This document shows, piece after piece, positions 1 through 13,418 of a DNA stretch of 13,418 nt. The DNA is from a virus (Duplodnaviria > Heunggongvirae > Uroviricota > Caudoviricetes). The stretch is taken from IMG/VR virus record IMGVR_UViG_2778261416_000004, positions 1-13,418 of that record. The stretch is one strand, 5' to 3'. Below the pieces are notes generated by a model. The model was not told where the DNA came from, did not search any database, and saw only the letters and a list, made by a program, of their open reading frames with translations. Both the position numbers and the translations under genes were made by a program. How positions within the stretch are numbered: the stretch's first letter is position 1; each line of letters begins with the position of its first letter.

Positions 1-558
1 ATGAATACAGCTATAACTTTTTCTAACGAGTCACCAAAAGTCTTTTTCAAAGATGGTCGCCTGGTTACCACCTCTCAAGCTGTTGCCGACTACTTCGATA
101 AACAACATAAACACGTTTTAGCTAAGATTGACACACTCGACTGCTCTCCCGAATTTACATCAGCCAACTTTTCGGCCGATGTTCAGACTGTCGAAATTGG
201 CAACGGCGCAGAACGTGAATCACGATGCTACCTGATCACAAAAGACGGCTTCATGTTCCTCGTAATGGGATTTACTGGCAAAAAAGCAGCCAGACTAAAA
301 GAAGCTTACATTGAAAAATTTAACGCAATGGAAGAAGAACTCCACAAACGTCCTCCTGCAGCACAAAACTCCCCCGCCCCAAATAATGGATGCGCATTAC
401 TGATCCACTTCGATAAACACGGTCAGGTCGAGTTCACAGAAAAAGTCCCCGCCGATGCGATGGTATGCACGCTGGAACGGTTTAAATTTTATCTGGAGCA
501 ACATGGGTGGATCGTTGCCCGTAAAGAACAATTGGTGGAAAGGTTGATGCGGTTTTAA
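1..558 (+). CDS. rha: Rha-family phage regulatory protein (Phage_pRha-like)
   Basis: 185-aa ORF starting at window position 1. N-terminal 'LVTTSQAVADYFDKQHKHVL' and the 'DGFMFLVMGFTGKKAARLKEAYIEKFNAME' block match the Rha signature as I recall it. Stop TAA at 556-558, followed by a hairpin terminator. Confidence 0.7.
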   Translation: MNTAITFSNESPKVFFKDGRLVTTSQAVADYFDKQHKHVLAKIDTLDCSPEFTSANFSADVQTVEIGNGAERESRCYLITKDGFMFLVMGFTGKKAARLKEAYIEKFNAMEEELHKRPPAAQNSPAPNNGCALLIHFDKHGQVEFTEKVPADAMVCTLERFKFYLEQHGWIVARKEQLVERLMRF

Positions 559-567
559 TGAATGCAA

Positions 568-598
568 AACCCCGGATGATCACCGGGGTTAATTTTAT
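568..598 (+). terminator. Rho-independent terminator-like hairpin after rha
   Basis: Perfect 8-bp stem aaccccgg/ccggggtt with 7-nt loop (568-590), followed by aattttat. Confidence 0.55.
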
Positions 599-919
599 CG
601 AGCGTGATTGCCGCTAATCGCCATCGCTCTGATTGAGCGTAAATCATTCAGGTTATTCAGTTCTTCCTTCTGCTCTCGCTGACGTCAATAAATCCCATCA
701 TTGCGATCAACCTCATCCTTAACCATTGATGCGAGCAGTTCTTCCAGTTTCTGCGCTGACAGCTTTACCTGGTGATCTTCAGCATCTTCCCGGGCTATTG
801 TGGTTCGCGCAGTGGCTGATTTTGCTGACATCACCACAGGGGGCAGACGGACCATTGAACCATGGCCTCCGGAACAAATAAGGGCAAAAATAACAACCAC
901 TATCGAAAGCTCACAAACT

Positions 920-1137
920 AACCGCAGCACGTTCCTGCATACGACGTGTCTGCGGCATAATCCCAATGATTACTCCCTGACAGGATTTGCAGGCCACTCA
1001 ATATCAGGTGCAGTTGATGTATCAACACGATTCAACAATACCCGATATTTATTCCATGCCTCCAGCAACGATCTTTCTTCCTCCGTTGCGATTTCCAGAT
1101 CTACAGCATCCTGCAGTGGCGCAATATACTCACTGAA
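920..1137. repeat. Direct repeat copy 1 (~215 bp, tfa 3'-end derived), left flank of methyltransferase island
   Basis: About 88% identical by eye to 1970-2187 in the same orientation. Covers the 3' end of the short tfa-like ORF and a downstream hairpin (922-955). Confidence 0.8.
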
Positions 1138-1239
1138 TTCCTGGATGTAGAACTGTGTGGTGACGGTCTTCCAGCCATTCGGCTCCTGCTGTATCGAAGC
1201 ATACCAGGCTATTTCAATATCGCTATGCTGCGGCAGCAT
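970..1239 (-). CDS. Short tail fibre assembly (Tfa)-like protein; C-terminal Tfa domain with unrelated 38-aa N-terminus
   Basis: 89-aa ORF. C-terminal ~50 aa ('[45 protein letters not shown]') near-identical to the C-terminus of the full tfa at 2019-2603. ATG at 1239 is preceded by an AAGGGG SD-like motif. Confidence 0.55.
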
Positions 1240-1295
1240 TTAACCCCTTGTAATTCATCGCCATAATTGATTTAATTCACAAATAAAACTATAAC

Positions 1296-1964
1296 ATGGT
1301 GAAATCAATGAAAAAAAACACAGATGATGGGGCTAAAATTTACACACCACTTACCCTAAAGCTTTATGACTGGTGGGTTTTGGGAGTATCAAATCGGCTT
1401 GCATGGGGATGTCCTACAAAGGAACACCTTCTTCCACACTTTCTGGAACATGTAGGTAACAACCATCTGGATATTGGTGTTGGAACTGGGTTTTACCTTA
1501 CTCACGTACCTGAGAGTAGTCTGATATCTTTAATGGATTTGAACGAAGCTAGCCTGAACGCGGCATCTACAAGGGCTGGGGAATCAAAAATTAAACATAA
1601 AATTAGCCATGATGTTTTTGAACCTTATCCCGCGGCGTTACATGGTCAATTTGATTCCATTTCCATGTTTTACCTTCTTCACTGCCTGCCTGGAAATATA
1701 TCTACAAAAAGCTGTGTAATACGCAATGCGGCGCAGGCCTTAACTGACGATGGAACTCTATACGGAGCCACAATTCTTGGCGATGGAGTTGTGCACAATA
1801 GCTTCGGTCAAAAACTGATGCGCATTTACAATCAGAAAGGCATCTTTTCAAACACAAAAGATTCCGAAGAAGGCTTAACACATATACTCTCAGAGCATTT
1901 CGAGAATGTTAAAACCAAGGTTCAAGGTACTGTAGTAATGTTTTCCGCTTCAGGGAAAAAATAG
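1296..1964 (+). CDS. Class I SAM-dependent methyltransferase (moron; substrate unknown)
   Basis: 222-aa ORF with motif I 'HLDIGVGTGFY', an acidic post-I residue ('LMDLNE') and motif II-like 'FDSISMFYLLHCLP'. AT-rich relative to neighbours. ATG at 1308, with a GGTGA SD-like motif 6 nt upstream, may be the true start. Stop TAG at 1962-1964. Confidence 0.75.
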   Translation: MVKSMKKNTDDGAKIYTPLTLKLYDWWVLGVSNRLAWGCPTKEHLLPHFLEHVGNNHLDIGVGTGFYLTHVPESSLISLMDLNEASLNAASTRAGESKIKHKISHDVFEPYPAALHGQFDSISMFYLLHCLPGNISTKSCVIRNAAQALTDDGTLYGATILGDGVVHNSFGQKLMRIYNQKGIFSNTKDSEEGLTHILSEHFENVKTKVQGTVVMFSASGKK

Positions 1965-1969
1965 CATCC

Positions 1970-2187
1970 AACCGCAGCACGTTCTTGCTTAAGACGTGCT
2001 GCGGCATAATCCCAATGATTACTCCCTGACAGGGTTCGTAGGCCACTCAATATCAGGTGCAGTTGATGTATCAACACGGTTCAGCAACACCCGATACTTT
2101 TTCCAGGCTTCCAGCAATGAGGTTTCTTCCTCCGTTGCAATTTCCAGATCTGCAGCATCCTGAAGCGGCGCAATATGCTCACTGGCT
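1970..2187. repeat. Direct repeat copy 2 (~215 bp), right flank of methyltransferase island; covers 3' end of tfa
   Basis: Aligns with 920-1137 by eye. Contains a perfect 11-bp-stem hairpin (1972-2004). Confidence 0.8.
1972..2004. terminator. Hairpin between convergent methyltransferase and tfa genes (candidate bidirectional terminator)
   Basis: ccgcagcacgt / acgtgctgcgg, 11-bp perfect stem with 11-nt loop, in the 54-bp gap between convergent stops. No clean U-tract, so terminator function is uncertain. Confidence 0.4.
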
Positions 2188-2603
2188 ACCTGCATCAGGT
2201 TGTTTTTTGTTTCTTCCGCCTCCCGGATCCGGAACAGTTTTTCTGCTTCCGTATCCTTCACCCAGGCTGTGCCGTTCCACTTCTGAAACTCCCCTTCCGG
2301 CGATAACCAGGTAACATTTTCCGGTAACGGACCGAGTTCAGAAATAAATAACTCGTCCCCTGACGCTACGTCATAAACCGTTTTACCCCGATGGTCTTCA
2401 ACGAGATGCCACGATGCCTCATCACTGTTGAAAACAGCCACAAAGCCAGCAGGAATATCTGGTGGTGCAATATCGGTACTGTTTGCTGGCAGACCTGTAT
2501 GAGGCGGAATATATGCGTCACCTTCACCAATAAATTCATTAGTTCCGGCCAGCAGATTATAAATTTTTATGGTCCGTGGTTGTTCACTCATTCTGAATGC
2601 CAT
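2019..2603 (-). CDS. tfa: Tail fibre assembly protein Tfa (lambda Tfa-like)
   Basis: 194-aa ORF; '[39 protein letters not shown]...' matches lambda Tfa as I recall it. Start ATG overlaps the stf stop (TAATG at 2601-2605), a typical stf-tfa coupling. Confidence 0.9.
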
Positions 2604-3976
2604 TATGCAAGCCTCACAATATAGTTAAATGCGATGTTTTTGACGGTGTTTTCCGCGTTACCCGCAGCGTTAACGGTGATGGTGTGTCCATGTGAACCAA
2701 TCGCAACGGAGTGCGTATGCGCACCAATACCTACAGTATGTGCATGTGCGCCAGAACTTGCTGCAGTACCAGACAGCGAGTGGGTATGAGCACCTGCTGA
2801 CTGTGTCTGAATACGTTGATAATACGATCTATAGGAAGAAGTCTCCGGGCTTACTTGATACTGTGAATTCTGGACATAAGTGAACCCACCGCCATCATAA
2901 AATGCTAACGCAGAACCGCCGCCTCCTGGCCAACGAATACCATTACCATGAGTATGAACACCGGCAGACCCCGTAGAGCCACTCAGACTGTGCGTATGCG
3001 CCCCGGTGTTATTCGTGGATTTAGTGCCGTAATCAAACGACGATGTGGTTTTCGTCCCCAAATCCGTACTGGATGCGCTGGCGCTGTGGGTGTGCGATTT
3101 AATGCCGTCCTGTTCCTGAGACAATACGGCCCGGCCACTGGCGGGTTTGCCCTTGATTGTCCAGCCGCGCATATCTGGAATAACACCTGAAGGATAGGCA
3201 ATAGCCAGTTTCGGATATGCTGCCTTATCAAACGTCTGCCCCTGCATGATTGCATAACCTGCAGGTGGTGTATCTGATGGCCACGGCAGCGGAACACCTG
3301 GCGGAAACGCTTCAATATTTGCCGAGCCGTCAAATTTTACGCCGTTAATTGTCCTTGCAGTTTGCAATTTGGTTGCTGTGCTTGCATTACCCGATAAAGA
3401 TCCAGTGATACCACCACTCGCGTTTAATTTAGTTGCAATTGTAACATTGCCAGTATGGTTACTAATTATAAACGGCCTTAAGCTATTGTGCGTACCAAGA
3501 CTGTTACCCGAATCTGTCAACATAAAATATGTGTTTGATCCATCATTTCGGATAAAGAATCCATAGTTGCCATAGGCAATACGCAGACCATTTGCTGACC
3601 TTGAAATAACCTCACCAGCAGCAGTTAAACCACCTGAAAGAGTCCCTCCAGTTAATGCCAATGCCCCAATATTTGAAGGGGTCAATGTGATATTTGCACT
3701 ACCATCAAATGACACACCGTTAATCGTTCTGGCTGCCTGAAGTTTCGTGGCGGTCGCAGCATTACCTGTAGTGTTTTGATTACCGGTAGCGTTGACTCCA
3801 GGCAAGTTGATATCTGCCGATCCATCAAATGCCACGCCCCCAATCTTACGTGCTGTCTTGATCTTGGTCGCAGTATCTGCGTTTCCGGTCAAATTACCAG
3901 TAACACTACCACCAACTTTTAGTCCATTACCGATGGACACCAACTCATGCAGGCGTCTCAGACGACCCACTGACAC
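2603..3976 (-). CDS. stf: Side tail fibre protein Stf, C-terminal portion (5'-truncated; GTG start, no SD)
   Basis: 457-aa ORF with repeated 'GNA(S/D)TATKLQ(T/A)ARTINGV(K/S)FDGSANI' fibre repeats and a His-rich 'GAHTHS' C-terminal region ending '[11 protein letters not shown]', like lambda Stf. The frame stays open upstream to 4066 with no ATG; first start-like codon is GTG at 3976. Confidence 0.8.
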
Positions 3977-4020
3977 TACCGGTGAGTTTAACGATACCTT
4001 CCATTTGACTGGCTCACTTT

Positions 4021-5874
4021 TTATGATGATGCCGGTGCATTTATCTCCAGCACCAGACTTTCTATCTCAACGCCATACGTTGCATTTTTGGTAATATCCG
4101 TCAGCGTCAGTGCATTTAGTCCCACTGTCAGACTGTCTTTTATGACCTGGAATGCCGGGCCAGCCACTCCATTCAGTTTCGGAGTAACCGTGGCACTGCC
4201 GGCGGTGAACACCAGCTCCAGCGTCTGCCAGTCGTTACTGTAATTCCCGAACTCGCCCAACTTTGTGTTTCCGGCTTTCTTGTGATGCATCAGATTCAGT
4301 TTGCCGTCTGTGGTCTGGGTGAAGAACGACATCAGGAACGGGTTACCAGTCCCGGTCATCGCCACGACGTCAGGTAACGCTACATCGGTATACAGATAAA
4401 TTCCCAGACCGAACTGGTTGTTGGTCAGTGCGCCTGACAGTCGAAACTTACAGCTCAGTCTGCCACCCCGTGTCAGCAGGGAGACTGCGTCATCCACCGG
4501 GCGCGTCAGGGACCAGGCTTTATTGCTCTGCTTGGTGATCTTAAATACACCATCTGACAACTGAATTCCGCCATTCTTAATGCTCCAGCCCTGCGCAGCA
4601 GCATCTCCGGCTGTCGGCAACAGGGAGATTGTGCGTACGGATGCATCTTCAGACGGCCCCGATGGCGTGTCGCCGCCGGGCGAGGGTTTGATTTCCGGTG
4701 CCTTACCACTAATGAAGGCTAAGGTGCGACCGGCTACGTTCAGAATAGCAGTTGCCATACGATCGGGAATAATGCCACGACGCGCCCATGAGCTGAAATG
4801 CGTCGGGCGATTTGATGATACCCAGTTTTTGTTCGTTCGGGATGCCGAACCGTAATAACCAGACCCGGCAATATCAGGATCTTCTGACGGGTTGTTTGTC
4901 GGTGTATTAACTCCGCTACCATCGGTCATAAAGGGAACAAAATAAATCTGCTGGGATTCTTTACCTTTATATGCACCATATACCACTTCATATTGCGTAC
5001 CGTGTTCTTGTTTCCACGCGTATGTCGTGTCGCCACAAATCCAGGGGACTGATGCCGGACTTCCACCGTGACACTGCGCTGCCAGCCCGGCAAGGTCAGC
5101 ACGGAACTGCTGTACCATTGCAAGAAATGCTGCTGGCTGCTGGGCGTAACTGGCATTCGTCATATCGAATTCCCCCTGCATCCAGCATATCGCCAGCAAA
5201 ACGTTTTTCGGGTTTTTCTGCAATGCTGCCTTCGTGCGGAAAAGCAGATCCTGATATAACGGCTTACCCACTCCCCAGCGAGCCGAATCCTGACTGGCTC
5301 CCGTGGACTCGCTGAATGTCCCCTCCGTGCCCTGGGTGAATGCCGAACCACCACGACAGCATGGTACCAGCAGGATCCCCGCATTATTAGGGATATACGG
5401 AAGCAGTTTTTTGGCAATATGTAAGCCCTGTCCGACACAGCCGTACTGCCCTTTGCTCAGGTCAGCCCGGGGATGGTTAATCGTACTCATATCCTGAACA
5501 TCATGCAGACAATGGTCAGCAGGAATGATGTCGTTAAATACGCATACTTCACCACCGGGAGTCACTGTGTTACGACGGGCCAGTTGCTTAATGCGCGGAT
5601 GGGGCGCATCGTATGAATCCGGAAGCGGAAGCCCTTCACCGTAAGCCATGGCATTGGATTGCCCGGCCAGTACGATGACGTAGTACCACTCCGGCTCAGT
5701 TGCACCACTGACGACCACATCACCTTCTGCTGCAATCGCCTGCATCAGGGTATAAGGGGTTATGGCCACCGGACTACCAAACGGCTGCCAGCCCTCCTTC
5801 AGTTTTTGTGTCAGTCGTTTCGCAAGGTCTGACGGCGATGCCGCCCTGACCACGTCATAGTGTTTAAATGCCAT
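4021..5874 (-). CDS. Prophage sialate O-acetylesterase (NanS-p-like; DUF1737 + SGNH/SASA esterase + C-terminal domain)
   Basis: 617-aa ORF. '[16 protein letters not shown]' is the SGNH block I motif (GQSN). N-terminus '[21 protein letters not shown]' is the DUF1737-type start seen in EHEC prophage NanS-p esterases. GGAGG SD 4 nt before the ATG. Confidence 0.8.
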
Positions 5875-6067
5875 GAATCCTCCCGGGCGGGATAATGTTG
5901 TGAGTCAGATAAGGAGCAGGCTGAAGTCCGGAAGTTACAGGACAATGGCAGAAGGGAGACTACAGCCCGCAATTCGAAAAAGACCGCGCAGTTGCGCAGA
6001 GTGATTACTATGGGGTATTATTCGCCAGCTGAAATATTACTTCACGTTTTATTGTTTATTCCTTGCC

Positions 6068-6096
6068 GCCCGCGTCTCCCAGCGCGGGCTTTTTTT
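6068..6096 (+). terminator. Strong Rho-independent terminator on the plus strand (orphan)
   Basis: 7-bp GC stem gcccgcg/cgcgggc with 8-nt loop, followed by a T7 run (6090-6096). No plus-strand gene lies upstream. Confidence 0.6.
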
Positions 6097-6104
6097 GTCC
6101 ATAA

Positions 6105-6340
6105 GAAAGCCCCTCCGGAGAGGGGCTAAAGCCGCGTATCTGTATCATCATGCACATGGTGCCGGGTGCCTCCCGGTGAGTTCAGCCCGGTGCCACTAAA
6201 CCCGCGTCATTCTCGTTTTGATAATCAGAGATTATACCGTCACCAGTCGCCCCTCCGCTCAGGGGGATTCACCATGCGAAATTTTTTTAACAAATGCCCA
6301 GTCTGACAGGCAACTGTCAACTTACTGAATTGTGAGCAAC
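6105..6340. repeat. Non-coding direct repeat module A (~235 bp)
   Basis: Shares with module B a perfect 20-nt palindrome agcccctccggagaggggct (6108-6127), 'gcatggtgccgggtgcctcccggtga', 'gcccctccgc.cagggggattcaccatgc' and 'ctgaattgtgag' blocks. Also carries TTGACA and TATAAT hexamers on the minus strand and a CTGACAG-N4-CTGTCAA inverted repeat. Confidence 0.7.
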
Positions 6341-6591
6341 ATAGCATTTAACGGGGAACCTGTTTTCTGCAGTAAAAAGGCCCACCGGAGCGGATGGGCC
6401 TGGAAGGATAGCGGTCATGTGATGCCGGTTTCCCGGTAACTCAGCACCGGTATCTGAGTCAACGTTTTCTCTACTGGGTCATTTCCGATACGCCCTGCCT
6501 GCTGACAGGCTTTCATCACATCTGAAAATATAGCACCCTGACTGATACTGTAGTACCTAAGGTTCCAGAAACTGTGATGTATCCGGCACAG

Positions 6592-6808
6592 AAAAGCCCC
6601 TCCGGAGAGGGGCTGGAGAGTGGCGCTATGTGCCATTGCATGGTGCCGGGTGCCTCCCGGTGAATTCAGTACCAGCACCTGAATCCGCGATTATCCCATA
6701 TACCTACTCGCTGATTGCCCCTCCGCACAGGGGGATTCACCATGCCAGTTTCTTTTAACAAACTCCCCGCAAACCAGACAACAGTCAACCGCCTGAATTG
6801 TGAGACAT
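6592..6808. repeat. Non-coding direct repeat module B (~217 bp)
   Basis: Second copy of module A (roughly 75-80% identity by eye). The palindromic hairpin at 6595-6614 is followed on the minus strand by TTTTCTG. Confidence 0.7.
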
Positions 6809-6810
6809 TT

Positions 6811-6834
6811 AAAAAAAAGCCCGCAAAAGCGAGC
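6811..6834 (-). terminator. Rho-independent terminator of the tRNA operon (minus strand)
   Basis: On the minus strand: GCUCGC-UUUU-GCGGGC hairpin (one G.U pair) followed by U8, immediately 3' of the last tRNA. Confidence 0.6.
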
Positions 6835-6849
6835 CAGGGAAAATAAGTG

Positions 6850-6926
6850 TGGCGCGTTGTACTGGATTCGAACCAGTGACCGATTGCTTAGAAGGCAATT
6901 GCTCTGTCCGGCTGAGCTAACAACGC
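6850..6926 (-). tRNA. argO: tRNA-Arg (anticodon UCU)
   Basis: Manual fold of the reverse complement: acceptor GCGTTGT/ACAACGC, D-arm GCTC...GAGC, anticodon loop CTTCTAA, T-arm ACTGG-TTCGAAT-CCAGT, discriminator G, CCA; 77 nt. Confidence 0.85.
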
Positions 6927-6939
6927 AGGATACAGATAA

Positions 6940-7016
6940 TGGACCGCCTTCGGGGACCCGAACTCCGCGCAACCAGCTTCGAAGGCTGGCGCTCTTTCCT
7001 GATGAGCTAATGGCGG
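6940..7016 (-). tRNA. argN: tRNA-Arg-like (anticodon UCG), possibly degenerate
   Basis: Cloverleaf with anticodon loop CTTCGAA and 3' CCA, but an A.A mismatch in the acceptor stem, an A.C mismatch in the T-stem and an atypical T-loop TTCGGGT. Confidence 0.55.
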
Positions 7017-7023
7017 TATGTGA

Positions 7024-7099
7024 TGGTGGCCCTTGCTGGATTTGAACCAGCGACCTGGCGATTATGAGTCGCTCGCTCTCACCACTGAGCTAAAGGGCC
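7024..7099 (-). tRNA. ileZ: tRNA-Ile2/Met (anticodon CAU; ileX-like, likely lysidine-modified Ile)
   Basis: Reverse complement GGCCCTTTAGCTCAGTGGTGAGAGC...CTCATAA...GCTGGTTCAAATCCAGCAAGGGCCACCA gives a canonical 76-nt cloverleaf, closely resembling E. coli ileX as I recall it. Confidence 0.85.
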
Positions 7100-7108
7100 G
7101 GGAGCAGA

Positions 7109-7137
7109 ATAATAATGGTGCGTAATTAATTCTGCAA
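7109..7137 (-). promoter_or_regulatory. Candidate sigma70 promoter of the tRNA operon
   Basis: Minus strand: TTGCAG (-35, 7137-7132), 17-bp spacer, TATTAT (-10, 7114-7109), about 9 nt before the tRNA-Ile 5' end. Confidence 0.45.
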
Positions 7138-7148
7138 TCTCATCCGTT

Positions 7149-7577
7149 TCAAACGATTAAATCCTGAACTTCCCTGACTGTCTGCTCAAAACGTCCGGTC
7201 TCCAGTTCAACGCCAATCGCACGACGCCCGAGCGCCAGTGCCGCTTTTACCGTTGAACCTGAGCCCATAAAAAAATCTGCAACCAGGTCACCCGGACGAC
7301 TGCTTGCGCTGATTATCTGCTGCAGCATTTCTGCCGGTTTTTCGCACGGATGTTTCCCGGGATAGAACTGCACCGGTTTATGTGTCCACACATCCGTGTA
7401 CGGCACCTGCGCCGTCACACCAAAATACCGCCGCAGATGCTTATATTCACTCTGCAGCTCCACATACTGCCGGTTCAGTGACGTATACGTATCCACCAGC
7501 TGGTGGTGGGGCTTTTCCAGTTCACCGCGCTGATGTTTCTCTTCTGCTACCAGAACAGGTCGAAGTAATACCCGCAC
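7149..7577 (-). CDS. DNA (N6-adenine/N4-cytosine) methyltransferase, C-terminal portion (truncated or frameshifted)
   Basis: 142-aa ORF with 'GKHPCEKPAEMLQQIISASSRPGDLVADFFMGSGSTVKAALALGRRAIGVE', i.e. the HPxxKP and FxGSGST (SAM-binding) motifs of beta-class MTases such as YhdJ. No DPPY motif in this ORF; GTG start abuts the stop of the upstream ORF in another frame. Confidence 0.7.
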   Translation of the reverse strand: MRVLLRPVLVAEEKHQRGELEKPHHQLVDTYTSLNRQYVELQSEYKHLRRYFGVTAQVPYTDVWTHKPVQFYPGKHPCEKPAEMLQQIISASSRPGDLVADFFMGSGSTVKAALALGRRAIGVELETGRFEQTVREVQDLIV

Positions 7578-7578
7578 G

Positions 7579-7851
7579 TTACCTCCAGATGCGTTGCTGG
7601 AATGTGCGGGACGGACGCGGTGGGCGTTCAGAGTAAGGAAGCCTGACGGAGATTATCCAGTGACGATAATCGAGGCTGAGGGCTTTCTTAATCTCGTATC
7701 CGCGTCTGCGGTAGTTATGAATTAGCCATTCGGCCTGTTCTTCAGTACATGGTGGGTGTTGGTACCAGTCGGTTTTAAATGCGTGTGAACGCCGCCCATG
7801 CCGGATGGCAAGGTCGGTATCAGAATTGTGAAATTTGGTTTTGTGCGCCAT
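7579..7851 (-). CDS. Hypothetical protein; possibly the displaced N-terminal part of the DNA methyltransferase
   Basis: 90-aa ORF ending 1 nt before the MTase fragment start. Contains 'DWYQHPPC' where a DPPY-type motif would be expected, but this is not a convincing match. Confidence 0.4.
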   Translation of the reverse strand: MAHKTKFHNSDTDLAIRHGRRSHAFKTDWYQHPPCTEEQAEWLIHNYRRRGYEIKKALSLDYRHWIISVRLPYSERPPRPSRTFQQRIWR

Positions 7852-7922
7852 CTGTTTTCTCTGCTGGCGCAGCAGGTGTCAGGTGTTCAGGCTGACGTGC
7901 GAATTGTAAACCAGAATGCCAG

Positions 7923-7950
7923 AAAAAAACAAAACCCGCCGAACCGGGTT
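7923..7950 (-). terminator. Rho-independent terminator downstream of hok (minus strand)
   Basis: Minus strand: AACCCG-GUUCGG-CGGGUU hairpin followed by UUGUUUUUUU, about 70 nt 3' of the hok stop. Confidence 0.55.
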
Positions 7951-8018
7951 AAGTGCGGGTGCGTTGAGGATGCCTGACACATCAGAGGTGGCGAGGGATT
8001 TCTCCCCCGCCAGGTCTC

Positions 8019-8174
8019 TTACTCCTCAGGTTCGTAAGCTGTGAAGACAGCGACCTCCGTCTGGCCGGTTCGGAGTCGTACCTCGCAGAGGTCTTTCCTC
8101 GTTACCAGTGCCGTCACTATGACGGTTAAACAGATGACGATCAGGGCGATTAACATCGCCTTTTGCTGCTTCAT
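8019..8174 (-). CDS. hok: Hok/Gef-family type I toxin (HokD/RelF-like small membrane protein)
   Basis: 51-aa product 'MKQQKAMLIALIVICLTVIVTALVTRKDLCEVRLRTGQTEVAVFTAYEPEE' aligns with plasmid R1 Hok ([38 protein letters not shown]). ATG at 8174 has an AAGGGGAAG SD; an in-frame upstream extension to 8231 (70-aa ORF in the track) could be a mok-like leader ORF. Confidence 0.85.
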   Translation of the reverse strand: MKQQKAMLIALIVICLTVIVTALVTRKDLCEVRLRTGQTEVAVFTAYEPEE

Positions 8175-8411
8175 AGCCTGCTTCCCCTTGCCTTTCGGCA
8201 CGTAAGAGGCTAACCTACATTTGTGAGACATAGATTGGGCCTCAGATTAATGTTAAGCGTCTTGCAGGACGCGAAATGTTAACTGGGGCTTTTCTCTATC
8301 TGCCTTTCAGTGTTCATGCCTGAGACAGATAGCCTCAAGCACCCGCAGCCATTCTACTTAACTCACGTCACCTCGCCAATATGAAATCAATCAGAAAGGT
8401 GATCCATAAAA

Positions 8412-9098
8412 TCACTCCTTCTCTTCTTTTCCGTAGTGGAGTTGGCCAATTTTGATAAGAGGGCGTCCCTGAGATTTGCGGTGTAGATTGGTATCGCGCA
8501 GAGAATACACACAGCCACAATATTCCTGCTGATAGAATTTTTCGCGCTTGCTGATTTCAATCATACGGGACGAGCCGCCCTGCTTGCGCCAGTTATAATC
8601 CCAGTACACCATACCCGGATAATGCGCAACAGCTCGCCGCCCACACTCGTTAACCTGCTGCATATTTTTCCAGCGTGAAATGCCCAGTGAACTGCTGATC
8701 ACACTGAAACCATTTTCAGCAGCGTACAACGCTGTCCGCTCAAAACGCATGTCAAAACACATGGTACAACGGATCCCCCTCTCAGGCTCCCATTCCATTC
8801 CTTTGGCACGTTCAAACCAGTTGTCGGTGTCGTAATCAGCATCGATAAACGGCACGCCGTGTTGTTCAGCAAAGCGAATATTTTCATCCTTACGAATTAA
8901 ATACTCTTTCTGAGGATGAATGTTCGGGTTGTAGAAAAAGATGGTGTAGTCGATTCCCGAGGCCTGAAGCGCCTCCATCACTTCACCGGAACATGGAGCA
9001 CAGCAAGAGTGCAGTAGTAGTTTGTTTGCCCCGTTTGGGAGCTCCAATTTAGGCCGTTTGAAATCAGCAATAGTCATAAATATTTTTATTGGGGTCAT
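8412..9098 (-). CDS. queH: QueH-like protein (DUF208; putative epoxyqueuosine reductase)
   Basis: 228-aa ORF with motifs '[11 protein letters not shown]', '[13 protein letters not shown]', 'CTMCF' and 'CGC', which I recognise as the DUF208/QueH Fe-S signature. 153-bp intergenic region upstream; weak SD. Confidence 0.7.
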
Positions 9099-9251
9099 GA
9101 AAATAGCACAGAGTGTAGCATCAGAGCAGGGCTATCGGGAATATATGTCTAAATCTGGTAATATCTGGTTTTGACGCAAAGCGGACAACCACGCTGGCTC
9201 TACCCTGCGCCATGAAAATGTCAATTCACATCTGAACTAATGCTCTTTAAT

Positions 9252-9677
9252 CTAGTAACGTCTAAAATACCTAACATTTCCTTGATAAAATGCCAGTACA
9301 CGCTGCATAGCTTCGCTCTTCCGGCACTCGCGACAGATTATATTCAGGCGCCTGTCGTAGCGGCGTATTTCGCCGTCTGGTAACGACCAGATAAGGTCCG
9401 GATCAACCACTGCAGGTTTCTTCACCTTTGCCCTTGAGAGTTTTTTGCGAGCATTTTGCCAGTCCTTACGCGCCTGTTCAGACGGGAATAACCCGTAACC
9501 AGAGTTGTATACATCGCCACTGGCAACCAGCTCTCTGGCCAGAACGCTCATCAGATATCTTGTTGCCCCAGTTTTAGTTTCCAGTTGTCGTAACGTCTCG
9601 CGCCCACTCTGGCGTACGAGTTCAACAACCTGCCCTTTAATTTTCTCCCGCTCTTCTTGTGTAAAAACTTTTGCCAC
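9252..9677 (-). CDS. Hypothetical phage protein (141 aa; possible winged-HTH region)
   Basis: GTG start at 9677 preceded by AGGAGGG SD 4 nt upstream. 'TLRQLETKTGATRYLMSVLAREL' is HTH-like. Not recognised as Q, P or NinB. Confidence 0.6.
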   Translation of the reverse strand: MAKVFTQEEREKIKGQVVELVRQSGRETLRQLETKTGATRYLMSVLARELVASGDVYNSGYGLFPSEQARKDWQNARKKLSRAKVKKPAVVDPDLIWSLPDGEIRRYDRRLNIICRECRKSEAMQRVLAFYQGNVRYFRRY

Positions 9678-9717
9678 AAGCCCTCCTGAAAATTACCTCA
9701 TGACCAGAAATTAACAC

Positions 9718-10695
9718 TTACCCCCTGAAGCCCGGCGGAATTTCAGTGTCCGGTTCAGAAATGTGATTCACGCAACGCTGCGCAGGCGAACGCCCCAGGC
9801 GGATAACCAGTTCATCCCATTTTTCCCGGAGTTTTGCCGGACTCATGATGTTTTTTACCCAGAACGAATCCCGCTGGAGACGCCCAAACATTTCACAAAT
9901 TTGTCTGTGAGTTCTGCCATCCAGCATCCGCATTGTGCGAACGTCATTGGCCCATGCTGTCCAGTTGGGTTCTTTCGGTCTAGTGATCTCGCCATCATCG
10001 CTGGCCGCCTGCTCGTAAAGACTCACGATTCGTCCCCAGATCCACTGTGCGCACACCAAATCTTCCTGACTTCCCCACTGGCGTTTTTTCGCACTGAACA
10101 CAACCGCGTCAGGGTGTCGGGTTAAAAAATCCTGTTCAGCCGTCTGCGGGTCCGGTTGCGAAGCGTCCGGACAAGAAGATCTTTTATCTGACGGATCAGG
10201 TTTTAATACTGACGGATCGGGGTCAATCATCGCCCCCCTAATCGGCAGTTTTTTATCAACAGTTGATCCATCAAAATTTGACGGGTCAACCGTTGAGGGG
10301 TCAATATTTGACGGGTCAACTGTTAACGGGTCATTTTTTGCCGGGCTAATTTTTCTTTTCGGTTTATATGACTCACGCGCCGCCGCCGCAGCTGCTTCGA
10401 GTTTTTCCACATTAAGCCGATAGATATTGCTTACATTACGCCCACCGACCTTACGCTCTTCCTTCGTCAGCCAGCCCTCTTTCGCCAGTTCTGCAATAGC
10501 CGATTTCACTGTGGATTCACTTCTTGCACCGATCTGACGCCGGATAGTTTCAATGGCAGGCCATGACACGCCCTCGTCATTGCTGTAGTCTGCAAGACGG
10601 GCCATAACCGCCACCCTGGATAAGATCATGCCGGTGAAGGCGCACCCTTCCCAGACAAGACCATGAAGCTTGCTGCTCATAAAACCCCCGAACAC
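9718..10695 (-). CDS. Phage replication initiator (O-like; N-terminal winged helix, internal iteron-encoded repeats)
   Basis: 325-aa ORF; N-terminus 'AFTGMILSRVAVMARLADYSNDEGVSWPAIETIRRQIGARSESTVKSAIAELAKEGWL' is a typical replication-initiator wHTH. Internal 'DPSNIDPSTVDPSNFDGSTVD' repeats are encoded by DNA iterons. Likely true start is ATG at 10680 (GGGGGT SD); the track start is GTG at 10695. Confidence 0.8.
   Translation of the reverse strand: MFGGFMSSKLHGLVWEGCAFTGMILSRVAVMARLADYSNDEGVSWPAIETIRRQIGARSESTVKSAIAELAKEGWLTKEERKVGGRNVSNIYRLNVEKLEAAAAAARESYKPKRKISPAKNDPLTVDPSNIDPSTVDPSNFDGSTVDKKLPIRGAMIDPDPSVLKPDPSDKRSSCPDASQPDPQTAEQDFLTRHPDAVVFSAKKRQWGSQEDLVCAQWIWGRIVSLYEQAASDDGEITRPKEPNWTAWANDVRTMRMLDGRTHRQICEMFGRLQRDSFWVKNIMSPAKLREKWDELVIRLGRSPAQRCVNHISEPDTEIPPGFRG
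10185..10370. repeat. Candidate phage origin of replication: iterons plus adjacent A/T-rich stretch inside the initiator gene
   Basis: Four 15-bp-periodic units TTGACGGGTCAAC / TTGAGGGGTCAAT / TTGACGGGTCAAC / TTAACGGGTCATT at 10278, 10293, 10308 and 10323, plus degenerate copies at 10188-10228, followed by the A/T-rich 10336-10370. Confidence 0.6.
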
Positions 10696-10702
10696 CGTGC
10701 TT

Positions 10703-11020
10703 TTAGTGCATCACCACAGCATTCCCTGCCGGGCCGCCGCGATTCATCTGGTCATACAAAACAACCGCTGACGCAACAAAATCATCGACATCCTTCACCA
10801 GCCGATCCCTCCGTTCGACGATCTCACGATAATATTCAGAACTGTGGCTGCGCATACGGGCCACCAGCAAAGGCGGCATCGCCTTTTCGATCGCCGGTAA
10901 CAGAGCCTGCATTTTTTCAACAGCATCAGGGGTGTCTTTCTCTACCCAGCGGAAAATTTTCTGGGTATTGCGAGCCAGGGCTTCCGGATGGCTGTCGTCA
11001 TACAGTTCTGGGAACGTCAT
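10703..11020 (-). CDS. Hypothetical protein (about 105 aa) upstream of the replication initiator
   Basis: Plausible amino-acid composition, whereas the overlapping plus frame is a low-complexity P/S/H-rich read-through. ATG at 11020 (track start is TTG at 11026); weak SD. Function unknown. Confidence 0.5.
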   Translation of the reverse strand: MTFPELYDDSHPEALARNTQKIFRWVEKDTPDAVEKMQALLPAIEKAMPPLLVARMRSHSSEYYREIVERRDRLVKDVDDFVASAVVLYDQMNRGGPAGNAVVMH

Positions 11021-11064
11021 ACCCAACTCAAAATAAGCCTGGGTTAAGGGGAAATGAGGTCAGC

Positions 11065-11220
11065 ATGGATACTATCGATCTTGGCAACAGCGAATCTCTG
11101 GTATGTGGCGTGTTCCCCAACCAGGACGGTACGTTCACCGCGATGACGTATAACAAAAGCAAAACGTTTAAAACCGAAAATGGTGCCCGTCGCTGGCTGG
11201 AAAGAAACTCAGGTGAGTGA
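11065..11220 (+). CDS. ydfA: YdfA-like small protein (51 aa), first gene of dicB-type operon
   Basis: ATG at 11065 with GAGG SD. 'MDTIDLGNSESLVCGVFPNQDGTFTAMTYNKSKTFKTENGARRWLERNSGE'. The sizes and order 51-42-72-DicF-62-62 match the Qin dicB operon. It is the C-terminal end of the track's spurious 185-aa ORF. Confidence 0.7.
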   Translation: MDTIDLGNSESLVCGVFPNQDGTFTAMTYNKSKTFKTENGARRWLERNSGE

Positions 11221-11221
11221 T

Positions 11222-11350
11222 ATGGATTTCGACACAATCATGGAAAAGGCTTACGAAGAATACTTCGAAGGTCTTGCCGAAGGCGAAGAAGCTCTCAGCT
11301 TCAACGAATTTAAACAGGCGCTTTCCAGTTCGGCAAAATCTAACGGCTGA
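11222..11350 (+). CDS. ydfB: YdfB-like small protein (42 aa)
   Basis: ATG at 11222, 1 nt after the ydfA stop, with AGGTGAG SD. 'MDFDTIMEKAYEEYFEGLAEGEEALSFNEFKQALSSSAKSNG'. Absent from the ORF track because it is under 60 aa. Confidence 0.65.
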   Translation: MDFDTIMEKAYEEYFEGLAEGEEALSFNEFKQALSSSAKSNG

Positions 11351-11379
11351 TAAGCGAAACAGCACCGCGAGGAATCAGT

Positions 11380-11598
11380 ATGCAGAAACGAGAACCCGTC
11401 ATCATCGCGCCAGACTATACCGATGATGAACTTTATGAGTGGATGCACCAGAAAATTAATGCAGCGCAGGATCTGAAATGGGCCAATGAAGCCAGGGCTA
11501 AGCAGGCTGAAAATCTGTCCGCTCTGGAGCAGGATATCACTAATCTGGAAAAAGCAGCGGCATTAAGCATTGCCAGAATGATTACATACCCGCGTTAA
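11380..11598 (+). CDS. ydfC: YdfC-like small protein (72 aa)
   Basis: ATG with GAGGA SD; position and size match ydfC of the dicB operon. Confidence 0.7.
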   Translation: MQKREPVIIAPDYTDDELYEWMHQKINAAQDLKWANEARAKQAENLSALEQDITNLEKAAALSIARMITYPR

Positions 11599-11939
11599 TA
11601 GCTAACCAACGAAGCTAAGGTTGGTAATTAAGGAGTTCTCCACGGGTCAGGTGGAGTGCGTGCGCCGGACACGGGTGAGCATCCGGCACTGACAGCTTAC
11701 TGAAAGGATATGTCCCTGAAAAGTCAGGGCATAACGCGAAAGCGCACGGCGAAATTGGTCTCTCTGTACGGTGTCGTTAAATTTAGTTCGACCGTGCGCT
11801 TCCGGTTGTGGCACTCCGCGAAATGGCGCGGCGGTAAGTATGGCTGGGGTTTCCTCCATTGCTCCAGAAAATGCACCGGGTTGTCAGGTTGACCATACGC
11901 TTAAGTGACAACCCCGCTACAACGCCCTCTGTTATCAAT

Positions 11940-11997
11940 TTTCTGGTGACATTTGGCGGTATCAGTTTTACTCCGTGACTGCTCTGCCGCCCTTTTT
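11940..11997 (+). ncRNA. dicF: DicF small regulatory RNA (ftsZ-targeting sRNA of the dicB operon)
   Basis: 'tttctggtgacatttggcggtatcagttttactccgtgactgctctgccgcccttttt' matches the DicF sequence as I recall it, including the terminator stem GGCGG...CCGCC plus U-run. Confidence 0.75.
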
Positions 11998-12175
11998 AAA
12001 GTGAATTTTGTGATGCGGTGAATGCGGCTATGCGCACGCGGAACAGTTAAAGCAGTAAGGCGGTATTTTACGGGCGTAACGAGCATCAACTAACCCGGCG
12101 TTAATTGTTAACTGGTTAACGTCACCTGGAGGCACCAGGCACTGCATCACAAAATTCATTGTTGAGGACGCGATA

Positions 12176-12364
12176 ATGGAAACGTTATTACCAAACGTTA
12201 ATACGTCTGAAGGTTGTTTTGATATTGGTGTTCTGCTCAGTAACCGGGAGTTTACTGAAGATGCCATTAATATGAGGAAATATGAGCCTTATCTGCTCAA
12301 TGATAATTCCATACTTTCCCGAATTGCTCTTCTTGAACTTGGTATTTTCGGAGAACGTCAATGA
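12176..12364 (+). CDS. dicB: Cell division inhibitor DicB homolog (62 aa)
   Basis: 'METLLPNVNTSEGCFDIGVLLSNREFTEDAINMRK...' matches the DicB N-terminal half as I recall it. GAGGA SD. The C-terminal half looks divergent. Confidence 0.8.
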   Translation: METLLPNVNTSEGCFDIGVLLSNREFTEDAINMRKYEPYLLNDNSILSRIALLELGIFGERQ

Positions 12365-12549
12365 CTTCAGCATTTGCACTGATGATGACGGTTTTTCTTA
12401 TAACGGGTGAATCACAGAATGTGATTACCGGAATTTATGCAAGTAAAGAATCCTGCCTCCAGGCAAGAGACGAGCAAAAAATTTCTGGTGAATGCCTCCC
12501 GCTAAAAAAAGTATCGCTGTACCTGAATAACGAAACACCGGCTGGATAA
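12361..12549 (+). CDS. ydfD: YdfD-like small protein with N-terminal hydrophobic segment (62 aa)
   Basis: ATGA start/stop overlap with dicB and GGAGA SD. 'MTSAFALMMTVFLITG' is a TM/signal-like segment followed by a hydrophilic tail with two Cys. Confidence 0.7.
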   Translation: MTSAFALMMTVFLITGESQNVITGIYASKESCLQARDEQKISGECLPLKKVSLYLNNETPAG

Positions 12550-12644
12550 CCCTCCAGCCATATTAACACCATACCAACGGATTAAAAATGCCAGCAATGG
12601 CAGGGATTCGTTCACCCTGAAATCTGTAATGAGGTTAAAACAAA

Positions 12645-13418
12645 ATGAGTAAGGTCTTTATTTGCGCTGCTATTCCTGATGAACAGGCCATAAAAGAAGA
12701 TAGCGCTGTTGCGGTGGCCACTGCCATTGAAGCCGGTGATGAGCGTCGCGCACGCGCAAAATTTCATTGGCAATTTCTGGAGCAATTCCCTGCAGCTCAG
12801 GACTGCGCTTATAAATTTCTTGTTTGCGAGGATAAACCCGGTATACCCCGCCCTGCCCTCGATTCCTGGGATGCTGAATATATGCAGGAAAACCGCTGGG
12901 ATGAGGAGTCTGCTTCCTTTGTCCCGGTTGAGACTGAATCAGATCCGATGAACGTCACTTTTGACAAGCTGGCCCCTGAAGTACAGAACGCTGTCATGGT
13001 TAAGTTCGACACATGTGAAAACATCACCGTTGATATGGTTATTAGCGCACAGGAATTGTTGCAGGAAGACATGGCAACATTCGACGGACATATCGTTGAA
13101 GCGTTGATGAAAATGCCAGAAGTTAACGCCATGTACGCTCTCTGGCCTGGTGATGTGGATGCCGGAAACATTGACGGCAGCATCCATCGCTGGGCAAAAA
13201 ATGAAGTTATCGACAACGACCGCGAAGACTGGAAGCGTATCTCGGCATCAATGCGCAAACAGCCTGATGCCCTTCGCTACGACCGCCAGACTATTTTTGG
13301 CCTTGTCCGTGAGCGTCCGATCGACATTCACAAAGATCCCATAGCACTGAACAAATATATCTGCGAATACCTGACGACAAAGGGCGTGTTTGAGAATGAA
13401 GAAACAGACCTGGGCACT
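12645..13418 (+). CDS. ydfE: YdfE-like protein, 3'-partial (runs off the window end; at least 258 aa)
   Basis: Translated by hand from ATG 12645 (GAGG SD 9 nt upstream): 'MSKVFICAAIPDEQAIKEDSAVAVATAIEAGDERRARAKFHWQFLEQFPAAQD...'. Open to position 13418 with no stop; not in the ORF track because it has no stop in the window. Confidence 0.7.
   Translation, partial: MSKVFICAAIPDEQAIKEDSAVAVATAIEAGDERRARAKFHWQFLEQFPAAQDCAYKFLVCEDKPGIPRPALDSWDAEYMQENRWDEESASFVPVETESDPMNVTFDKLAPEVQNAVMVKFDTCENITVDMVISAQELLQEDMATFDGHIVEALMKMPEVNAMYALWPGDVDAGNIDGSIHRWAKNEVIDNDREDWKRISASMRKQPDALRYDRQTIFGLVRERPIDIHKDPIALNKYICEYLTTKGVFENEETDLGT

Follow-up and report, generated by a model that had tools for sequence, protein, structure and literature searches.

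A gene on the minus strand of a degraded lambdoid prophage encodes, as judged from its sequence and modeled structure, a genuine QueH, and this enzyme probably serves Escherichia coli as an epoxyqueuosine reductase that works without vitamin B12 (cobalamin), backing up the cobalamin-dependent QueG. The gene lies in a 13,418-nt stretch of viral DNA (Caudoviricetes; IMG/VR record IMGVR_UViG_2778261416_000004, positions 1 to 13,418), which is referred to below, at its full length, as the window. As a cobalamin-independent iron-sulfur enzyme, the prophage QueH would reduce epoxyqueuosine (oQ) to queuosine at position 34 of tRNA-Asp, -Asn, -His and -Tyr.

An initial annotation of the window had assigned the gene to the minus-strand open reading frame (ORF) at 8412-9098, with a product of 228 amino acids. 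This ORF exists and carries the CGC and other cysteine motifs that were quoted for it; its start, however, needed correction, as translation probably begins at the second ATG, 9077, which yields a product of 221 residues. The features of the queH unit are as follows.

8412-9077, minus strand: queH coding sequence (CDS), 221 amino acids plus stop, with the conserved ATG at 9077-9075 (from the ORF, the Pfam QueH match, RefSeq and the leader alignment)
9078-9098, minus strand: seven upstream in-frame codons (MTPIKIF) within the 228-residue ORF, probably 5′ untranslated region
8406-9193, minus strand: mobile queH module common to different lambdoid backbones, with a minimal version at 8408-9126 (from blastn breakpoints)
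9111-9124, minus strand: invariant 14-nt block CTCTGATGCTACAC(T), with the candidate extended −10 element TGcTACACT at 9119-9111, 34 nt before the ATG

RefSeq calls an identical 666-nt CDS that starts at 9077 and encodes a 221-residue product (WP_000150294.1). In the leader alignment the Rac-type allele of strain GF47 reads ATT in place of the first ATG, followed by an in-frame TAA. Moreover, five of the seven upstream residues differ between the window and the E. coli B allele, while the remaining protein is about 96% identical. The GF47 leader and the divergence of the upstream codons both support the start at 9077. Residue numbers of the window protein are given below in the 228-residue frame unless the 221-residue frame is stated.

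The assignment to the QueH family is solid. A profile search, one of the checks suggested when the homology was proposed, returned a strong and essentially full-length match to Pfam PF02677 (QueH, formerly DUF208) with 221.5 bits (E = 1.1e-65; cut-off, 23.5 bits), covering profile positions 1-174 of 175. When PDB sequences were searched with phmmer, the sole matches were Thermotoga maritima QueH (7lc5) and its mutants (E = 7.8e-22, residues 27-203), to which the window protein is about 31% identical. A HMMER search of 1.84 billion cluster representatives gave 4774 matches at E ≤ 0.001, from which 59 diverse whole-domain members were aligned together with T. maritima QueH; a second alignment, of 47 diverse sequences, contained 18 invariant columns. 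The six T. maritima cysteines C9, C10, C87, C90, C169 and C171 correspond to C32, C33, C111, C114, C194 and C196 of the window protein, and they are invariant in 59/59 and 47/47 of the diverse family members. These are the residues that Li et al. in 2021 reportedly found to bind a [4Fe-4S] cluster and an adjacent iron. All 18 invariant columns, the six cysteines among them, are kept in the window protein, and further family-invariant residues (N59, E65, Y66, R69, E106, R110, R118, K144, Q191, G195 and S199) are likewise all present. Cys36 stands in the column of T. maritima Asp13, so that the window motif reads CCAPC and the T. maritima motif CCAPD; according to the titles of PDB entries, C9S and D13N mutants of the T. 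maritima enzyme have been studied. The idea that this replacement breaks the active site was ruled out, since cysteine is the majority residue of the family at this column (55/59 diverse representatives) and aspartate is found in 4/59.

The predicted structure points the same way. An AlphaFold2 model built on the 47-sequence alignment had a predicted local distance difference test score (pLDDT) of 94.9 and a predicted template modeling score (pTM) of 0.90, and its fold is adenine-nucleotide-alpha-hydrolase-like, as in solved QueH. A Foldseek search with this model returned the five T. maritima QueH entries as the best PDB matches, with target-normalized template modeling (TM) scores of 0.90-0.92 and root-mean-square deviations (rmsd) of 1.2-2.0 Å. 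The top three, 9d86, 7lc5 and 7lc7, had a TM score of 0.92, an rmsd of 1.2-1.3 Å and E values of about 3e-14, so that the comparison with T. maritima QueH that had been proposed as a further check came out clearly positive (TM 0.92, rmsd 1.2 Å). The next fold family, the TtuA-type tRNA thiolases, followed at E = 1e-4, ten orders of magnitude worse. Judged by sequence and model together, the product of 8412-9098 is a genuine QueH in which each family feature that could be tested was found, as had been claimed for it, and it is probably catalytically competent. Some much longer cluster representatives, P0125 (1398 amino acids), P0129 (761), P0135 (719) and P0138 (824), have a C-terminal QueH domain 54-59% identical to the window protein; they may be fusions or gene-calling artefacts.

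In complete E. coli genomes, queH was present in 995/5426 (about 18%), and 985 of these 995 keep at least 80% of the gene. queG was present in 5426/5426, which bears out the statement of the initial annotation that E. coli normally uses QueG; queH is therefore always an addition and never a replacement. The B-type allele of queH occurs in E. coli B (REL606, B and ATCC 11303), E. coli C and ATCC 8739, where a Qin-type prophage holds the gene, and the carriers include O157:H7 isolates. K-12 has no queH: the equivalent interval of its Qin prophage (NC_000913.3, 1645119-1647850) holds relBE, ydfV and flxA. In phages, a tblastn search found the gene in only one isolate, the temperate Escherichia phage HannyBb, where it is annotated as a hypothetical protein. 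The other matches in this search, which were not relied on, were either metagenomic "Bacteriophage sp." fragments without annotation or oversized records whose viral nature is doubtful. A scan of IMG/VR gave 184 relatives. A survey of viral queuosine-pathway genes published in 2019 found no QueA, QueG or QueH homologues in the viruses analyzed (PMC6884629), and our literature searches, which used several names and accession numbers for the prophage protein, gave no relevant paper. In PHROGs, the corresponding family phrog_3217 is labeled "unknown function"; its profile of 188 positions does not start until residue 34 of the 221-residue protein and was therefore built from truncated gene calls that miss the CCAPC motif. 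The view that the gene had no characterized function in lambdoid prophages thus holds insofar as no published characterization was found, but its novelty was overstated: RefSeq already uses the name "epoxyqueuosine reductase QueH" for every record among those listed, which come from about 1000 complete E. coli genomes. What is unusual about the window queH, an uncharacterized member of a known enzyme family, is its vehicle.

To trace where this vehicle obtained its cargo, we searched 5.8 billion proteins for relatives of the window QueH. The best matches, 78-86% identical, were QueH proteins of Erwinia, Providencia, Proteus, Photorhabdus, Gibbsiella, Ewingella, Sodalis, Dickeya and others. The Erwinia gene lies between purL and glrK-glrR-glnB, the Providencia gene adjoins tmcA near purC, and on the contigs inspected from five further genera queH stands among ordinary metabolic genes; none of these chromosomal neighborhoods had prophage-like surroundings. 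Because its closest relatives sit at such sites, the E. coli gene is best read, on these sequence comparisons, as a phage capture of a housekeeping enterobacterial queH. Its boundaries in prophages are sharp. Breakpoints from blastn comparison with the loci of E. coli B, HannyBb and GF47 place the 3′ edge of the module 4-8 nt past the queH stop codon (8406-8408) and the 5′ edge 28-95 nt upstream of the first ATG (9126 in GF47; 9193 in E. coli B and HannyBb), which makes queH a discrete mosaic module of 720-790 bp. Together with the variable backbones in which the module is found and the different genes in the K-12 Qin slot, these edges confirm that queH is discrete prophage cargo, as the initial annotation had proposed.

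The short leader included in this module may have come with the gene. In the leader alignment, the block CTCTGATGCTACAC(T) at the 5′ edge of the minimal module is invariant across four different prophage contexts. An identical TGCTACACT is found in Erwinia, 31 nt ahead of the ATG of the chromosomal queH, although the remainder of that leader has diverged, and related −10 elements precede the queH ATG in Sodalis (TGCTATATT, at 40 nt), Gibbsiella (TGATATATT, at 27 nt), Providencia (TATACT, at 32 nt) and Photorhabdus (TATAAT, at 31 nt). From this resemblance to the chromosomal homologues we infer that the promoter of queH came along when the phage acquired the gene, which could then be transcribed free of phage control. 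The leader contains no preQ1 or cobalamin riboswitch and no other known RNA in Rfam at E ≤ 1, and a consensus scan found no intrinsic terminator on either side of queH; between queH and the downstream hok gene there is no terminator-like hairpin.

Based on these results we propose that a lambdoid phage captured queH from a chromosome elsewhere in the Enterobacterales, along with the short promoter and leader native to the gene, and that queH would since have traveled as a self-contained cargo of 0.7-0.8 kb at the boundary of the replication and nin regions. In the lysogen it would probably be expressed from its own promoter, with read-through from the early operon added after induction. E. coli cannot make B12 de novo. 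Since QueG needs cobalamin, a lysogen short of B12 could finish queuosine synthesis with the prophage enzyme, in the way that MetE backs up MetH, and we consider such a backup function likely. QueH genes of other bacteria have reportedly been found (by Zallot in 2017) to complement an E. coli queG mutant. According to PMC4646009, which cites Frey et al. 1988, the step from oQ to queuosine on tRNA is cobalamin-dependent in E. coli and Salmonella. PMC5372724 treats the full queuosine pathway of E. coli as established and, like PMC6063277, describes QueH as a non-orthologous, cobalamin-independent replacement for QueG; it is also common for one genome to keep cobamide-dependent and -independent isozymes for the same reaction (PMC6461909). 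That the enzyme is active in E. coli, that its own promoter drives it in the lysogen and that it brings a fitness benefit under B12 limitation are all inferences. As for the suggestion that queH is a moron altering host tRNA modification, the discrete cargo module is plain from the boundaries, and an effect on tRNA modification is, from the sequence, probable.

Several observations weigh against the backup function as we propose it. No NCBIfam model matches the window QueH. A consensus scan, which requires a −35 element, found no sigma-70 promoter on the coding strand of 9099-9251, the interval in which the initial annotation had suggested that the gene's own promoter be sought; what this interval does hold is the invariant TGCTACACT at 9119-9111, as in Erwinia queH. 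This candidate extended −10 element has a poor −35, and a TGnTAnnnT match is expected by chance in about 10% of 100-bp stretches. No recognizable Shine-Dalgarno sequence precedes the ATG at 9077. Furthermore, queH runs in the same direction as the early-right operon, and its main expression may therefore follow induction and not occur in the lysogen. As to the benefit itself, gut E. coli usually has access to corrinoids, which would weaken the need for a backup. We know of no established phenotype that separates oQ-tRNA from queuosine-tRNA, and the selective benefit is to that extent unproven.

The alternative that fares best, although we hold it to be unlikely, is that the same enzyme serves the phage, being transcribed after induction, mainly from pR as a delayed-early gene, and essentially silent in the lysogen, so that queuosine on host tRNAs aids the decoding of NAU and NAC codons in the late genes. 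Such a lytic function would fit the position of queH, which lies between the replication genes and the Q antiterminator gene and is oriented like them, as well as the lack of a terminator-like site on either side and of a sigma-70 promoter of its own in the consensus scan; that the isolated temperate phage HannyBb carries queH in the same slot is also in its favor. Against it stands the state of the gene in prophages that can no longer grow lytically. queH is intact and under strong purifying selection in cryptic prophages without Q, lysis and structural genes, namely that of the window and that of E. coli B, which has an IS3 insertion and truncated tail and DUF968 genes. The conservation of the −10 element with the chromosomal homologues argues for autonomous transcription, and one lytic cycle would seem short for the remodeling of a stable tRNA pool.

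The selection that acts on queH was estimated from three prophage allele lineages over the 221-codon CDS, which gave dS of 0.27-0.46, dN of 0.013-0.022 and dN/dS of 0.04-0.06. On these sequence comparisons the gene is under strong purifying selection. This bears on the possibility, which we regard as very improbable, that queH is a neutral passenger kept by linkage to addictive neighbors (hok/sok or restriction-modification genes) and by a lambdoid recombination hot spot. The downstream neighbor is indeed nearly always hok/sok or a pair of Dcm and NgoMIV-type restriction-modification genes, and the host already has QueG. Linkage, however, preserves the presence of a gene and not the sequence of its protein; the low dN/dS at dS values of up to 0.46, the persistence of an intact gene in lytically dead prophages, the retention of at least 80% of the gene in 985/995 carriers and the retention of all invariant catalytic residues disfavor a passenger.

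Least credible of all is a QueH that has acquired a substrate other than tRNA, such as a 7-deazaguanine or epoxide-bearing DNA base, or a function in defense or counter-defense: homologues of queuosine-pathway proteins have been recruited to DNA modification and defense in DpdA/QueC-type systems (PMC6884629) and QatC, and queH does lie among methyltransferase and restriction-modification genes, but the protein retains every invariant residue and 80-86% identity to housekeeping QueH, and neither the Pfam matches of the ten largest ORFs of the window nor the annotated intact relatives include DpdA/TGT-like proteins, FolE, QueD, QueE or QueC. Membership of queH in a defense system was likewise rejected, as it had no PADLOC match. 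In the established pathway, oQ arises only on tRNA, through QueA. The unexplored phage use of 7-deazaguanine chemistry that the initial annotation had entertained is therefore not borne out, given this identity to housekeeping QueH and the lack of DpdA/TGT and preQ0-synthesis genes.

A broader extension of the backup function is conceivable, although we think it quite doubtful. The B12 transporter BtuB doubles as the receptor of E-group colicins and of phages such as BF23. If the prophage QueH uncouples queuosine maturation from B12 uptake, BtuB could be lost or repressed without a cost in tRNA modification, and phages could tune the balance of oQ and queuosine as a form of lysogenic conversion. 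Were this true, such tuning of tRNAs with GUN anticodons would affect competition or the susceptibility to toxins that target queuosine-tRNA, for example colicin E5, and in QueH a phage auxiliary gene would for the first time be shown to encode a tRNA-hypermodification enzyme.

Every context examined has queH in one fixed slot of lambdoid prophages. On the upstream side is a DUF977/Ren-like gene that ends the replication module; on the downstream side is either hok/sok followed by DUF968, rusA and Q, or the Dcm and NgoMIV-type restriction-modification pair. The backbones that carry the slot vary and include Qin/DicB-type, Rac/YdaSTUV-type and O157:H7 prophages. Contexts were counted in the best 80 of the 184 IMG/VR relatives, in all of which the E. 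coli allele is identical: hok/sok lies downstream in about 52 and the restriction-modification pair in 18, and most have DUF977 upstream. For addictive or defensive cargo the slot is a hot spot. In E. coli O157:H7 Z1832 (locus L001, 9806-11816), queH is followed by a Dcm-type cytosine methyltransferase and an NgoMIV-family endonuclease. In the window, the neighbors named in the initial annotation, namely the tRNA genes, the methyltransferase remnant and the hok toxin gene, are all real.

9252-9677, minus strand: gene for a DUF977/Ren-like exclusion protein, the upstream neighbor of queH (Pfam DUF977, 99 bits; PHROG family 142, "Ren-like exclusion protein")
8019-8231, minus strand: hok/mok toxin ORF, downstream of queH (Pfam HOK_GEF, 79 bits), with the hok/sok RNA region at 8169-8344 (Rfam RF01794 sok, 120.5 bits)
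7149-7577, minus strand: C-terminal fragment of a DNA N6/N4 methyltransferase (Pfam N6_N4_Mtase, positions 111-219 of 221 only)
6850-7099, minus strand: cluster of three tRNA genes, Arg-UCU, Arg-UCG and Ile/Met-CAU, outside the queH unit (ARAGORN, Rfam); the CAU tRNA is annotated as tRNA-Ile in RefSeq

The proximity of queH to the tRNA genes had suggested a link between them. Comparison of the window with the intact prophage of E. coli strain BR1220 (locus L005) does not support this. The window lacks 3,440 bp of the BR1220 prophage (L005, 5111-8550), comprising the 5′ part of the methylase gene, a small ORF, Q, rusA and nearly all of the DUF968 gene. The junction has a 10-bp overlap at 7542-7551, which suggests a microhomology-mediated deletion. 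In the intact relative, about 4.7 kb with DUF968, rusA, the Q antiterminator gene and the full methylase gene separate queH from the tRNA genes, which belong to the late region beyond Q. Both the closeness of queH to the tRNA genes and the methyltransferase remnant are thus due to a deletion specific to the degraded prophage of the window. Queuosine, moreover, is confined to tRNAs with GUN anticodons (PMC9508795), and the anticodons of the cluster are UCU, UCG and CAU. A functional link between queH and the adjacent tRNA cluster was therefore rejected: the tRNA species are the wrong ones, and the genes are neighbors only through the 3.4-kb deletion. A second deletion, of 1,545 bp (L005, 10697-12241), has removed the genes for a DnaC-like ATP-binding protein and a DUF1627 protein between window positions 9686 and 9714; an O-like helix-turn-helix gene (9718-10695) is left almost abutting DUF977. 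The holin and lysozyme genes of BR1220 are also missing from the window, in which the tail-fiber gene comes directly after a NanS-p-like esterase gene, and lysis and morphogenesis genes are therefore lacking.

With T. maritima QueH (7lc5) and the chromosomal enterobacterial QueH proteins, the window protein has the domain, the six invariant cysteines and the fold in common, and with the Erwinia gene also the promoter-like element TGCTACACT. Unlike the chromosomal genes, it is located on a lambdoid prophage or temperate phage rather than at a core locus, and in a host with QueG, where it is redundant rather than a replacement. QueG (YjeS) and the window QueH are predicted to carry out the same reaction, from oQ-tRNA to queuosine-tRNA, on the same four tRNAs, but QueG has an unrelated fold, uses cobalamin and two [4Fe-4S] clusters and is a core enzyme of E. 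coli (5426/5426 genomes), whereas queH is accessory (995). MetH and MetE, and the class II versus class I/III ribonucleotide reductases, are likewise pairs of non-homologous enzymes of which one needs B12 (PMC6461909). In contrast to such pairs, the B12-independent partner here comes from a mobile prophage module that only about 18% of strains carry. Like the lambdoid morons, queH is a discrete insertion with sharp mosaic boundaries, dispensable for phage growth and kept in cryptic prophages; it has a promoter of its own in common with them only as a candidate, and it differs from them in that the module has no terminator of its own and in that its cargo is a tRNA-modification enzyme. Phage 7-deazaguanine DNA-modification clusters are also phage-borne and within queuosine/7-deazaguanine chemistry, but they use DpdA with FolE, QueD, QueE and QueC, none of which was found here, and do without QueH.

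Should the prophage QueH be active, roughly one E. coli strain in five would be able to complete queuosine without B12, and K-12 would not. This strain difference, hidden so far, would matter for studies of tRNA modification and translation fidelity and for recombinant expression in media without B12, and would explain how queG came to be discovered by a knock-out screen in K-12 (PMC4646009), since its loss would be masked in B strains. A tRNA-modification enzyme would also join the list of auxiliary genes carried by phages. The effect of the prophage QueH is likely to be subtle. Since no phenotype is known to separate oQ from queuosine, we regard the finding as useful rather than surprising.

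Further features of the window lie away from queH. The esterase gene already mentioned, at 4021-5874 on the minus strand, encodes a 617-residue protein with DUF1737, a SASA carbohydrate esterase domain and DUF6645, resembling the NanS-p 9-O-acetyl-sialate esterases of Stx-type prophages. Between it and the tRNA cluster are two full-length copies of the STnc100 small RNA (Rfam RF02076; 165 and 136 bits) at 6097-6306 and 6584-6774 on the minus strand, about where Stx phages hold stx. On the plus strand, 1296-1964 encodes a 222-residue class I S-adenosylmethionine-dependent methyltransferase (Methyltransf_12/23/25; phrog_2132, "unknown function", 521 bits). It is on the strand opposite to two flanking tail-fiber-assembly-like ORFs (970-1239 and 2019-2603) that have a common C-terminal sequence, and may represent a further cargo gene in a tail-fiber region that is invertible or duplicated. 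Rfam also reports an "IS009" match at 2062-2260. A YdaT-family ORF is located at 10703-11026, and the DicF antisense small RNA (Rfam, 77 bits) at 11941-11992 on the plus strand marks the element as a lambdoid prophage of the Qin/DicB type.

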